NCBI GenBank assembly: GCA_951406725.2
Contig: OX597830.1
Location: 79,360,001 to 79,424,000 of the forward strand
DNA: 64,000 bases
Direction: 5' to 3'
Source of the DNA: Octopus vulgaris
Taxonomy: Eukaryota
Shown here: positions 5,301-47,300 of the stretch, in pieces
Numbering within the stretch: the stretch's first letter is position 1
How the letters are laid out: each line of letters opens with the position of its first letter
The notes under the pieces: model-generated
Seen by the model: only the letters and a program-made list of their open reading frames with translations
Told to the model about the DNA's origin: nothing
The model's database searches: none
Translations under genes and position numbers: made by a program

Positions 5301-8300
5301 TCCTGTCACCAAAAATGTCATGACATGGGGGTACACATCAAGTGTAAAATGGTATGACTCATTATTAAACAGTTGGTTGTGGTCATCTAAAAATAAGCTA
5401 TTGCAGAAATATATGTTAACACAGAATGCACACACACTACTCCAATGTAGGTACGATACTCAGCATTCACTATTCAACTACTGACTGTTAAACAAAACCA
5501 TGTCAAATTAACATGGTAAAACAACATGGTTGAACTGACACTGTCAACTACTTGATAGTTCAATAATCAGATCTTATTTATAGTAATCGGTTAGTCCAAT
5601 TTTAGTCACTTCGGGGGTGTTTGGGATTCTTCCATAAAAATATGTTATAAGAAAATAAGAGGGAAATCTGGCAGAGGTATCATTAGTACACTGGGCAAAA
5701 TGCTAGCAGCATTTTGCTCATCTTTACTTCTTGATTTCTAGTTCAGCTTAGGTTGGCTTTCTGAGTTGATAAATTAAGTACCAGTTGAATACTGGGGTTG
5801 ATGTATCTATATACCCCTCCCCTGAAATTGCTGTCTTTGAGTCAACCTTTGAAATCAATATTTTATAAGAAAATATAATAAAGTGATTATAAAAATATAA
5901 GTATGTTGTGGTGGTTATCACTCATCCTCCATGAGGAAGTCATTTTAGTTTCAACACACAAAATTAGAACAAATCTCTCATTAAAAAAATAGAATTCGAT
6001 ATTCAGTGAAAGAATACAAGCTGCTTTTGTGCATCAGTTTCATCGACTATGTAAAAACTTTGAAGAACATCAAGATGAATGCAGTGCCAAAATCACTTGA
6101 AATTCAAAGAGTCAAAATGTAATACATCAAACTGCTTAGGGCTGTGAAAGCCAGACACACACACACACACACACCCATATATATATATGGGGATATAATT
6201 CAAGCTGTGTTCTCATGAAGCACATCTCTCTCTCTCTCTCTCTCTCTCTCTCTCTCTCTATCTATCTATTTATCTCTCCTGGTAGTCCATGAATATAATT
6301 AGGATCATCATTAGCAGATATTATGGATTTCCCATTGAGTTTACAAACCAGTTTTGAGTTTTGTTTAATTTACATCAATCTGTTCCTTATGCAATAGAGA
6401 AAGAAATCAATATCACAAAATATAAATTCTTTCACCAATAAAATGTGTGTGATTGTTAAAATTACTCTTCCGGGCAATAACAGAAGAATTTAAGATGGGC
6501 TGCCCCTGGGAACTCCTCTATGCTGATAACCTTGTTCTTACAGCCGAATCCCTACCTGAACTAGAGAAGAAATTTCAGGTGTGGAAGGAACGTCTAGAAT
6601 CAGAGACCTTAGAGATAATCTAGCAAAAACAACCAAAGTCTTAGTAATTAGGAAAGCAGACAAATCCTAGATCCCTTCTAGTAGATGACCCTGCCTGGTC
6701 TGTAGGAAAAGTATAAGTAGAAACTTCATAAGATGTACCTGGTGTAAGCTATGGATACATAAGAGGTGCAGCAATATCAGAGGAAGGTTAATAGGGAAAT
6801 AGTTTTGTGTGTAGTAGGTGCACAGGTACAATAAACGCTAAAAATGTACAGAAAATAGATTCCATCAAATGCCAGGGTGAAAAGCTAGAAGTAGTTGATA
6901 GGTTCCATTATCTAAGTGACCAAATCAGTTGTGGAGGTGGATGCTCTGAGTGCATAGCTACAAAAATAAGAATAGGCTGGGCTCAGTTTAGAGAGCTCTT
7001 ACCTCTGATGGCAACAAAGAGAGCCTCTCCCTCAGAGTGACAGGTAGATTGTATGATGCCTGTGTGCGAACAGTCATGCTACATGATAGTGAAACATAGA
7101 CTGTAACAGCCAAGGACATGTGTAGGCTTGAAAGAAATTAAGCTAGTGTGCTTTGCTGGACGTACAAGGTCATTGTGAATGTAGGGTAGAGAGTGTCATG
7201 AGAAAAAAGTTGGGCATAAGAGATATCAGATGTGGTGTGCAAGGCGGCGAGCTGGCAGAAACGTTAGCACGCCGGATGAAATGCTTAGCGGTATTTCGTC
7301 TGTCGTTACGTTGTGAGTTCAAATTCCGCCGAGGTTGACTTTGCCTTTCATCCTTTCGGGGTCAATAAATTAAGTACCAGTTCCGCACTGGGGTCGATGT
7401 AATCGACTTAATACCTATGTCTGTCCTTGTTTGTCCCTTCTATGTTTAGCTCCTTGTGGGTAATAAAGAAATAGATGTGGTGTGCAAGAGAGACAACTGC
7501 GCTAGTGTGATTATGTGATGCATATGGATGTAGGCAGCTGTGTAAATGTGCTGATTTCTAAGGATGGATTTAACCTGTGGAAGAAGTAAACCCAAGAAGA
7601 CATGGGACTAGGTGGTGAAGCATGATCTTCGAATGTTGGACCTCACGGAGGCAATGACTAGTGACTAAGACTTTTGGAGATATGCTGTGCTTGAGAAGAC
7701 CAGTCAAGCCAAGTGTCAAAGATCACTGGAGATAGTGAGCCATTCGCGGTTCCATCTGCGCAGACCGACCACCTGCAGACCTGACACACAACTGACACTG
7801 GAACCAGTAGCACATTAAAGCACCCTTAATTCTCTTCAAGTGGTTGGCATTGGAAAGGGCATCCAATGGTAGAAACCATGCCAAATCAAACTAGTGTCTG
7901 GTGCAGCCCCTCAGCTCACTAACCGTCCAACCCATGGTAGCAGATGTTAAAAGATGATGTTGATGATTAATGGTATAGCTATCTTAAGAGAGATAAATGT
8001 AGAGAAACGATAGATTGCTATATTAAATGCCAATCATTTGCTTTTTGTGAGCCATCTGTTATTTTTCCATCTGTATGCCATTCATAAATAATACTAGTGA
8101 TCTAATGGAGTAAGATTTAGAAGAGTAGCAATTCAGTATGTTATTTAGTACCTCAATTTTATGTCTTCCTGTACCAATTCCTGAACATCATCCTGCAAAT
8201 AAAAGAAATGATATTGAATATGAGAAAAAATGTTGGGGATTCAACTATTGACAATCTTATAGCATCAATTTTTGCCAACGATTATAGAAAAGGCATATTT

Positions 8301-44300: not shown

Positions 44301-47300
44301 GGCCTCACATGGAGCTGCAATGTGTATGTTGTACCTGCCGAATTTCCTAACAAGAGCTACCAACTCTCAGGTCTGCTGTTTTGGTGCTGTCCATAAGTGC
44401 TCAAACATTCCATGAGCGAATAGTGAGGGATGTCAATGATGTTTGCATCTTGGTGTTTCGACTGCATTGCTTTTCTCGTTAAATGTTTGAAATATACTAA
44501 ATGGCTGCTCTTCCAAATCTTACCCGATTAGATCACAAGTATTATTTAAAAATAACAGAAAGGCAGACATCAACTGAAGGCTCAAAAAACCAAATGTTGA
44601 TAGGATTTAAATATAGCACTCCGTTATTTTTCTACATTTATTTCTCTTAAGGATTAATAATTTTAATAAGCAGACAGTTTTATTGGGGAAAAAATTGAGA
44701 TTTTGTGATATTGATTTCTTTTACTATTATAAAATGAACAGATTTGTGCAAAGTAAGGAGCAGTTGAAACTGGTTTGTGAACTCAGTGGGAAATCCATAG
44801 AATCTGTAAATGATGATCCTAATTATATTCATAAACAGTGAGAGGGAGAAAGGGAGCAAGAGAAAGAGGGTGTCAGAGGGATGGAAAGAGAAGGAGGAAG
44901 AGAGAGATAGAGAAAGAGAGGATAAAATAAATTTATTGATAGATAGATAGATAGACTGACAGACAGACAGACAGACAGACAAAATATAAAGATGTGGGTG
45001 GGGAGAATGTATTCACTAATTTGTGGATTCAACTGTTGTAACAAGAGACTTGACCAAAGTTTGTGTGTTGAAACTGAAATGACCACATCATGGAGGATGA
45101 ATGATAACCACCACAACATACATATATTCTGGTATACAGACCAGAATAAGGTGAAGTAAGCAATGTTTATGGTACCTTTGCCAGCTGTTCCTTTATGCCA
45201 TGGAGGTGACCAGCGCTCTCTTGGAGCTGCTCAGACATTTACACATCTGCCAAATTTCACTGCTGCTTCGGTCAGTGGAGCATGAACCCTGCCCTGGGCC
45301 ACCTGTCTTCAAGTTTGTAACTACAGCACCCACTGATGAATCTTACACTTACCCTCTCACACATAACTATTGTATTCTGACACACACCTGTTTCTCCTTA
45401 CCCTTTTCTAATCTCATTTTCACTTGAGTTCCACATAGACATCAATAGATTCTCTGCTATTAGAAATCACATACTAACTACCACTTCTTGTATCCATTAC
45501 CATGTTGACCATCTGAAATATGACAAAGACAATCCCCTTCTCCTTCCCTTAATTTTCTCTTTTTTCTCTCTGAAAAGACTATATCTTTTGCCTCAATCTT
45601 TGTTGTCTTTTCCTTTTCCACATGGCTTAATTCATTGCTTTGTTTTATATTTATATTTTTTTAAAATTATTTTTGCGGAGGAGCATTAAGACCAGGATTT
45701 CTCATGAAATCAGTCTCATTCTTTAATTGCTGCTTGCTCTCAGCTTCTTGAGAAGAAGAAACAGGAATCTGTAGAATTGTTAAGTAACAATAAAACTGGT
45801 CATTTTAATCTTCATCCCAAACTGCCAAAAATCATGGTTTTGTGTAATTTTTTGAGATTTTTTCATATTTAATATTCTTTTCTACTCTAGACACAAAGTC
45901 CGAAATTTGGGGGGAGGGGGCCAATCGATGAGATAGAACATCCTCCATGATGTGGTCATTTCAGTTTCAACGCACAAACTTTGGTCAAGTCTCTTGTTAC
46001 AACAGTCGAATCCACAAATTAGTGAATACATTCTCCCCACCCACATCTTTATATTTTGTCTGTCTGTCTGTCTGTCTGTCAGTCTATCTATCTATCTATC
46101 AATAAATTTATTTTATCCTCTCTTTCTCTATCTCTCTCTTCCTCCCTCTCTTTCCATCCCTCTGACACCCTCTTTCTCTTGCTCCCTTTCTCCCTCTCAC
46201 TGTTTATGAATATAATTAGGATCATCATTTACAGATTCTATGGATTTCCCACTGAGTTCACAAACCAGTTTCAACTGCTCCTTACTTTGCACAAATCTGT
46301 TCATTTTATAATAGTAAAAGAAATCAATATCACAAAATCTCAATTTTTTTCCCCAATAAAACTGTCTGCTTATTAAAATTATTAATCCTTAAGAGAAATA
46401 AATGTAGAAAAATAACGGAGTGCTATATTTAAATCCTATCAACATTTGGTTTTTTGAGCCTTCAGTTGATGTCTGCCTTTCTGTTATTTTTAAATAATAC
46501 TTGTGATCTAATCGGGTAAGATTTGGAAGAGCAGCCATTTAGTATATTTCAAACATTTAACGAGAAAAGACTTATATAGAAATCAATAATAAACTGATAT
46601 TGGTAGTTGTCTCACTTGTTGGTTTGGGGTTATCAACGTCCACAAAAAGATATTTTTGTTTACTAATTGCTGGGATAATCTCAACTGATTAAAGATTTTA
46701 TCTTACTATATACCATAACTGAAACCCTGCTATATATATACTTATATATTATCATATTTAGGGACATATTTCTTGCATTACCTCTGTGTAGCAAAGACTT
46801 CCAAATGGAGATCCTGGAAATAAAAGAAATGGTATTAAATGTGAGAAAGAATGATTGAGATCCATCTTCTGACAACACATAATATGAAGAAGAGATTACT
46901 GAATATAAATAGCAACAGTTATGTGGTGGAGATAATCTAATCCATAATATCTCAGATACACATGATTCCATTTTTTTTCTTTGTAGTTTTAGCATGGTAA
47001 ATTGATTTTGACATGGGATTTGGATGGATAAATTCTTCTGGTTAGAAACAGTATCACATGATGATGAGAGAATTTCTATTTAATCAATTGAAACATTTGT
47101 TTAAAATTTGTAAGCTGTATCAAACTAAGAATTGTATACAATACCATACATATACCTTTAAAAATGACTAAAAGGAAAGGAAGAAAGAGTGCAAGGAGAG
47201 AACTATTAAAAGGTTGCTAAACTCTAAATGCTTCCTGTTTCATTCTCTCTCTGTTGATTTCTTCTTATTCCTTTTTGTCGAGGAGCATAGGCTCGAAACA

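Follow-up and report, generated by a model that had tools for sequence, protein, structure and literature searches.

A short-exon array in an octopus TRPM2-like channel gene and its probable origin by copying of a SLOG-opening exon pair

The window analysed here is a stretch of 64,000 nucleotides (nt) from Octopus vulgaris (G000:C17:79360001-79424000, C17 being contig OX597830.1), which lies within a gene for a TRPM2-like ion channel encoded on the minus strand. Inside this gene, eleven short exons alternate in the order X1-Y1-X2-Y2-X3-Y3-X4-Y4-X5-Y5-X6. We read them, with a probability of about 0.68, as a coding linker that is mainly included whole between the last two SLOG domains of the channel, and that was made by tandem copying of the pair of exons with which a SLOG domain opens. 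An initial annotation of the same DNA had seen in this array a cassette for combinatorial splicing. Positions given without the contig label are those of the window.

The eleven exons and the exon pair they resemble

The eleven short exons are real: all of them were found with intact AG and GT ends and no stop (Table 1), just as initially annotated. From exon A through the DAFG exon, which opens SLOG5, the reading frame is single and open over 906 nt, and all 15 exons within the window are intact. The public protein P0007 matches the coding parts of the window's Y1-X6 and DAFG exons exactly. Length differences among the X exons and among the Y exons are all multiples of three, including a 9-nt acceptor shift in Y1 and a second donor 24 nt downstream after Y4 and Y5. 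This shows that the exons are coding and agrees with the conserved frame noted earlier; since all-in splicing demands the same, it is not specific to combinatorial use. Y1 had been given as 43 nt. The proteins P0001, P0002, P0007, and P0011 take the upstream AG (42615) and have the 52-nt version, while the 43-nt start, 9 nt further inside, is in frame too. The linker is made up of 150 amino acids (aa), with 37 D/E against 17 K/R, so its charged character stands as first described; its acidic, disorder-prone nature is judged from composition only. No Pfam family matched the array, and look-alikes in the atlas, with scores of at most 0.86, are leads at best.

Where could such exons have come from? 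All SLOG modules of the gene begin with a pair of exons: one of 38 nt, running from phase 0 to phase 2, and then a DAFG exon (82–88 nt, phase 2 to 0). A profile of the three 38-nt exons with their flanks matched all six X exons (E from 3e-24 to 8e-8) and nothing else. A profile of three DAFG donor flanks recovered six of eight Y donors, against 0/8 for profiles of seven other SLOG exon classes, and a profile of four such flanks recovered seven (E from 4e-8 to 0.22). The DAFG acceptor profile matched no Y exon, so the ancestry of the Y exons rests on the donor side and on phase. By these similarities, the X exons are copies of the 38-nt SLOG-opening exon, the Y exons degenerate copies of the DAFG exon, and the array as a whole an (X-DAFG)n series in which every DAFG copy but the last has degenerated. 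This gives a template to the exon-pair duplication proposed at the outset. The flank motifs listed at that time are only approximate: two of six X exons have a perfect match to the X donor motif, and two of five Y exons have one to the Y acceptor motif. Over the 444-kb gene region, flank profiles matched all 11 array exons, and the remaining minus-strand matches are related exons of the same gene plus one Y-flank fragment without an exon. X2 and X3, whose contexts are closely similar (Table 1), are the youngest duplication; flank trees resolve only X1(X2,X3) and two N-terminal Y exons, and do not give the order of Y1-Y5.

A second short-exon array is present at the N-terminus of the gene (C17:79685000-79622000, L074-L081), with the same alternating phases and Y-type flanks. 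It adds two further exon types, and its unit content varies among copies.

The following history can be proposed. A two-exon X-DAFG unit would have been duplicated in tandem, presumably through unequal crossing-over, to yield X-Y-X-Y...X-DAFG. The last DAFG copy alone would have retained MHR1 sequence while the earlier copies shrank to Y peptides, under selection that held the frame and tolerated amino-acid change. The main mRNA would then contain all eleven exons and encode a linker of about 150 aa, acidic and disorder-prone in its first half, tethering the upstream SLOG modules to the channel core, and the length of this linker would vary mainly through DNA differences among gene copies. The array is a clean example, open to tracing, of how two exons that code for part of a domain were copied and decayed into a linker; the flanking intron sequence still records their ancestry, although the peptides are no longer similar.

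A host gene with probable tandem SLOG domains

The host gene can be classed, by its domains and database matches, as an Octopus TRPM2-like (betaTRPM) channel. This agrees with the TRPM-like gene recognized initially, as SLOG, TRPM2-like, and Ion_trans domains are found and the top database matches are named TRPM2-like. The SLOG family PF18139 (MHR1/2, LSDAT_euk) gives two stretches in P0007, three in P0001, four in P0132, and one in P0125; P0007 also carries PF25508 (TRPM2-like) and PF00520 (Ion_trans). With public proteins mapped on 444 kb, the order from 79.69 to 79.26 Mb is: N-terminal short-exon array, SLOG1/2 chimera, SLOG3, a three-exon linker, SLOG4, the array, SLOG5, MHR3/4, and channel exons. 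The array connects the last two SLOG domains (SLOG4 and SLOG5), and the MHR3/4 and six-helix channel exons map downstream in the same gene (C17:79.33-79.26 Mb). Public annotation divides this multi-SLOG gene into separate genes. In O. bimaculoides, P0132 holds four SLOG stretches and stops one exon short of exon A, and the adjacent model P0125 begins in exon B and holds the fifth SLOG. O. sinensis P0001 links the upstream SLOGs to X1-X4. P0011 connects exon B, by way of the array, with SLOG5 and then with the membrane region; P0007 extends from SLOG4 to the channel. These overlapping models would tile one channel with up to five tandem SLOG/MHR1-2 domains, four of them in the window's copy.

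In that copy, the first half of SLOG1 runs into the second half of SLOG2, forming an in-register chimera (C17:79602000-79572000, L069-L072); similar in-register module jumps occur in P0001, P0010, and P0012. P0007 places a 146-nt exon at 55771-55626, replacing B, C, and X1. Unique among the models examined, this exon is probably a prediction artefact, and the matching stretch before the SLOG5 exon B has stops.

Of the 25 rows in a SLOG tree, none of them alphaTRPM or TRPS, the 14 that represent modules group as a single clade (100/99), arranged by module across species and placed inside the Octopus TRPM2-like paralogs. Among proteins of solved structure, human TRPM2 is closest to P0125 (E 2.8e-94). 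In TRPM channels the SLOG domains lie in the cytosol. No NUDT9-H Pfam match was found in P0007, P0012, or P0016, and PF25969, which we take to be NUDT9-H, occurs in most non-cephalopod matches and is listed for none of the Octopus matches. The MHR1/2 pocket residues of TRPM2 include Y295, R302, and R358 (excerpts of PMC6759353). SLOG4 and SLOG5 keep R302; Y295 is replaced by S or P and R358 by G or Q, although three of seven non-cephalopod rows are also without this R. The GGAK loop is conserved in 9 of 11 single-SLOG rows and altered in 14/14 module rows. Since the positions of the ADP-ribose (ADPR) pocket are partly changed, the ligand of SLOG4 and SLOG5 may differ.

The array has been seen only in Octopus proteins: a phmmer search with P0126 against 1.84 billion representatives gave five Octopus matches and one repeat protein judged spurious. 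No account of a short-exon array or of tandem-SLOG TRPM channels was found in the mainly open-access papers searched, which for the array upholds what had been stated before; the accessible portions of PMC13143021, PMC13402157, bioRxiv 10.1101/2024.05.23.594666, PMC12919962, and PMC11703226 contain no such description. The supplement file of PMC13402157 holds 0/6 accessions of these genes, and the domain-architecture figures of that partly available paper could bear on novelty.

Splicing, gene copies, and alternative readings

Once the phases of the SLOG-opening pair have been copied, alternating phases and 144 in-frame paths follow automatically and are uninformative on splicing. The count of 144 is arithmetically correct, as is the absence of stops among the junction codons, which is trivial since no stop codon begins with AG or AT. 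The step from phase-locking to combinatorial use is not supported, because an all-included linker needs the frame equally and any tandem pair of phases 0-2 and 2-0 gives the same paths; the accessible transcript-level evidence is itself all-in. Phase compatibility on its own is no evidence of combinatorial splicing.

Of the six proteins in the O. bimaculoides cluster, four span the array, and each of these models includes the 11 exons, identically ordered; the only difference between them is a stretch of 13 aa preceding Y1. Identity to the window is 100/149 aa in the array and 287/353 in SLOG5. The O. sinensis proteins P0001 (C-X1...X4) and P0002 (C-X1...X3) are both without skips. Assembled contigs of guessed RNA type from four sequencing runs (runs X1, X5, X6, and X8, from four studies) were mapped on 2100-16600, and implied exon cover was taken as binned depth divided by contig depth on Y5. 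The junction tables of this interval are dominated by a repeat near 7240-7470, so that only binned depth is usable and low-level skipping may remain undetected. In the order of the runs, implied cover is 52, 52, 52, and 37 nt in the Y4 bin, 86, 32, 65, and 32 nt in the X5 bin, and 77, 77, 76, and 77 nt in the Y5 bin, which fits one spliced contig per run across Y4-X5-Y5. These contigs could derive from any of the five Y4-bearing copies; in runs X1 and X8 the letter at 9251 is that of the window, which is also found in one other copy.

Several observations weigh against our reading. Runs X1 and X6 have extra cover in the X5 bin (86 and 65 against 32 nt), and possible sources are a contig with skipping, a variant from a paralog, or reads from the intron; run X8 is without cover on X6 and the DAFG exon, which we do not count as a finding. 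Contigs lose rare forms, and no junction row for array exons is shown. The O. vulgaris models P0142 (Y3 to X6) and P0006 (Y3 to X5) skip intact exons in frame, and the O. sinensis isoform P0130 omits 70 aa of the related N-terminal array. All three are weak evidence of skipping; the P0130 junction (N-terminal Y directly to last X) exists as DNA at C17:67.81-67.83 Mb, and among 96 candidates P0142 and P0002 are the only short proteins holding the array. As for the linker, Y5, at 0.3–0.6, is similar in charge to ordinary sequence, and in a charge-hydropathy comparison the final 66 aa lie on the folded side of the line. Finally, no single record covers all SLOG modules and the channel, and the window's gene copy has, outside the window, 1-nt deletions relative to its paralogs in a SLOG3 exon (C17:79522514-79522412, L028) and an MHR4 exon (C17:79311707-79311620, L013).

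A switch after X4 is a tentative possibility that is compatible with a mainly all-included linker. The frame would be ended by a donor lying 40 nt beyond X4 or by polyadenylation at that point in the intron. Beside the full channel, the product would be a soluble multi-SLOG protein that carries an acidic tail, or else a target of nonsense-mediated decay. O. sinensis P0001 terminates at a stop close to the start of the intron that follows X4. Of the first nine aa of the O. bimaculoides isoform P0124, seven match the start of that intron, after which the sequence enters Y4. X4 alone among the 11 exons has an AATAAA at most 300 nt from its donor, kept in 4/4 other copies examined, but this motif has a frequency of 1.1 per kb in the span. 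The switch is also based on two predicted proteins, and a model may stop simply where assembly or coverage stops. We rejected P0124 as a separate promoter exon, as its start maps to the X4 donor flank.

Turning to the gene copies, unit number varies among the related arrays (Table 1) and some of them carry frame-breaking changes. A channel exon is found in five copies that are 97–100% identical. Some copies may be haplotypes or assembly duplicates. For the 67.7 Mb copy, a compensated loss of X1 was considered, as its 94-nt exon C fits the Y1 phase, and was rejected because the Y1 donor is lost there.

Exons A-C of the window and of the 68.0 Mb copy differ at 57/369 sites against 23/977 in intron flanks, with proportions of nonsynonymous (pN) and synonymous (pS) differences of 0.183 and 0.065 (P = 0.013, uncorrected, one of 12 groups). 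The 67.7 Mb copy gives a like pattern (52/362 against 16/980). Divergence between copies is about 15% in these exons and about 2% in the intron flanks, mostly at amino-acid-changing sites. The first MHR3 exon, compared between the C17:67629173 region (L105) and C17:79325121-79324987 (L012), differs at 22/135 sites, around 20 of them amino-acid-changing, against 5/317 in its flanks. In the array, one comparison gives 22/449 against 54/3537, with X3 accounting for 10 of these 22 sites, and the other 11/362 against 56/2875; pN and pS are nearly equal each time. We interpret the pattern in exons A-C as diversifying selection, with gene conversion as a possible alternative.

Given its two deletions, the window's copy may be a pseudogene or contain consensus errors. 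It is doubtful that this copy is a decaying duplicate whose array was inherited from functional copies elsewhere on the contig, which would supply the RNA signal. The deletions (C17:79.522 and 79.312 Mb) would fit such decay, as would the breakage of other copies (a 53-nt Y4; a copy without X1, with a lost Y1 donor and a 94-nt exon C) and the near-intron divergence of the array in the second comparison above. However, the window's exons are all intact, its letter at 9251 appears in two runs, and where duplication is so extensive, deletions of a single base may stem from errors in the consensus.

More ambitious is the idea that octopuses have evolved, in several gene copies, a TRPM2-like receptor in which as many as five nucleotide-sensing SLOG domains stand in tandem under diversifying selection, and whose combinatorial or switchable paired-phase linkers change the tether length or release a soluble multi-SLOG protein, DNA copies and splicing together diversifying an immune or chemosensory sensor. 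As a whole this is unlikely; the tandem-SLOG architecture alone is probable, and far likelier than the splicing part.

Quite unlikely is a regulated cassette in which omission of X and Y exons, in numerous combinations that keep the frame, would adjust how long and how charged the linker is: it can call on the 144 paths, the in-frame skips of P0142, P0006, and P0130, the unexplained X5-bin cover in two of four runs, and array introns that all exceed 1 kb, so that no path is sterically forced or forbidden, but phase compatibility is a by-product of the X-DAFG unit, the spanning O. bimaculoides models are 4/4 all-in, cross-mapping could explain P0130, whose junction is genomic DNA in one copy, and five Y4 copies at 98–100% identity make short-read skips unreliable.

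Table 1. Exons of the window (window positions) and related arrays elsewhere on C17
Feature	Position	Strand	Description
Exon A, SLOG4 module	62415..62503	-	89 nt, phase 0 to 2; 29/30 aa identical to P0001
Exon B, SLOG4 end	55330..55520	-	191 nt; 62/63 aa identical to P0001
Exon C, start of MHR3-like stub	52694..52788	-	95 nt; ends in phase 0
X1	46782..46813	-	32 nt; SLOG-opening exon copy; in P0001, P0002, P0011, P0142
Y1	42564..42615	-	52 nt; second in-frame AG gives 43 nt from 42606
X2	36674..36705	-	32 nt
Y2	35067..35106	-	40 nt
X3	29587..29618	-	32 nt; context 88% identical to X2 across 1.4 kb
Y3	21330..21357	-	28 nt
X4	20027..20058	-	32 nt
Candidate X4 extension	19987..20026	-	40 nt; contains in-frame stop and AATAAA; model-inferred
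Y4	16443..16494	-	52 nt; second in-frame GT 24 nt downstream
X5	12858..12889	-	32 nt
Y5	9214..9289	-	76 nt
X6	8152..8192	-	41 nt; retains ancestral ...IKLR end
DAFG exon, opens SLOG5	2221..2302	-	82 nt, phase 2 to 0; Y-exon template
Related array	C17:68.04-68.08 Mb		11/11 exons intact
Related array	C17:67.66-67.70 Mb		9 exons before gap; Y4 of 53 nt
Related array	C17:67.76-67.80 Mb		no X1, Y1 donor lost, 94-nt exon C, extra X2-Y2 pair (67.77 Mb)
Related array	C17:69.46 Mb		three X2-Y2 pairs
Related array	C17:56.94-56.97 Mb		6 intact exons after gap

The introns of the window hold further features. In the X1-Y1 intron, 44470-45099 and 45939-46569 form a 631-bp inverted duplication, 99.4% identical, which could fold into a long pre-mRNA hairpin; the 68.04 Mb copy has it only once. 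The A-B intron contains, at about 57700-62100, decayed retroelement-like sequence recognized by eye, with a partial second copy at 4745-5194; 55895-57074 is a degenerate tandem repeat with a period of about 70 bp and a long GA run. A very high-copy short repeat (7241-7476) reaches a depth above 100,000 in the sequencing runs.

Comparison with known systems

The Octopus gene resembles TRPM2 and invertebrate betaTRPM channels in the SLOG, TRPM2-like, and Ion_trans domains of P0007, and its modules nest with Octopus TRPM2-like paralogs. Unlike them, it has tandem SLOGs (four Pfam stretches in P0132 and one in P0125), a nucleotide-sensing domain that is single in its relatives, proteins without a listed NUDT9-H match, altered ADPR-pocket positions, and short-exon arrays both at the N-terminus and between modules. 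It also differs from P0016 in having no Cys-rich stretch between the X and DAFG segments. With its tandem MHR1/2 domains, altered ligand pockets, five near-identical channel-exon copies, and excess of amino-acid change, the host gene matters more than the array, and the multi-SLOG channel is a testable candidate for a lineage-specific octopus sensor. The multi-SLOG architecture, the excess of amino-acid change upstream of the array, and the possible stop-introducing donor after X4 are new leads.

Tandem exon duplication of the Dscam type leads to mutually exclusive splicing. As in that type, the Octopus exons were duplicated together with their intron flanks; in contrast, the models include the copies in series, and not one per set.

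Schistosome micro-exon genes (MEGs) are mostly made of very small symmetrical exons, encode secreted or anchored proteins with a signal peptide, and show alternative splicing (PMC4350168 and PMC10526429, both in part). The Octopus array shares with them short exons, kb-scale introns, and gene family expansion. The likeness initially drawn nevertheless fails on the defining features: 0/11 of the Octopus exons (28–76 nt) are symmetrical (3n), and the array makes up only 150 aa of a large channel, with models of 900–1400 aa each covering part of the gene.

In fast skeletal troponin T, developmentally regulated splicing has been demonstrated for the N-terminal variable region and the avian Tx (P) exons, with 13 mouse and 11 chicken forms detected (PMC11016001, in part). 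Here too, tandem short exons code for an acidic segment of variable length. Unlike those of troponin T, the Octopus exons need paired phases and derive from a domain-coding exon pair, and their skipping is seen in models only. By analogy, troponin T is the closest working parallel for a tunable acidic segment encoded by mini-exons, and only a small share of its possible forms is detected.

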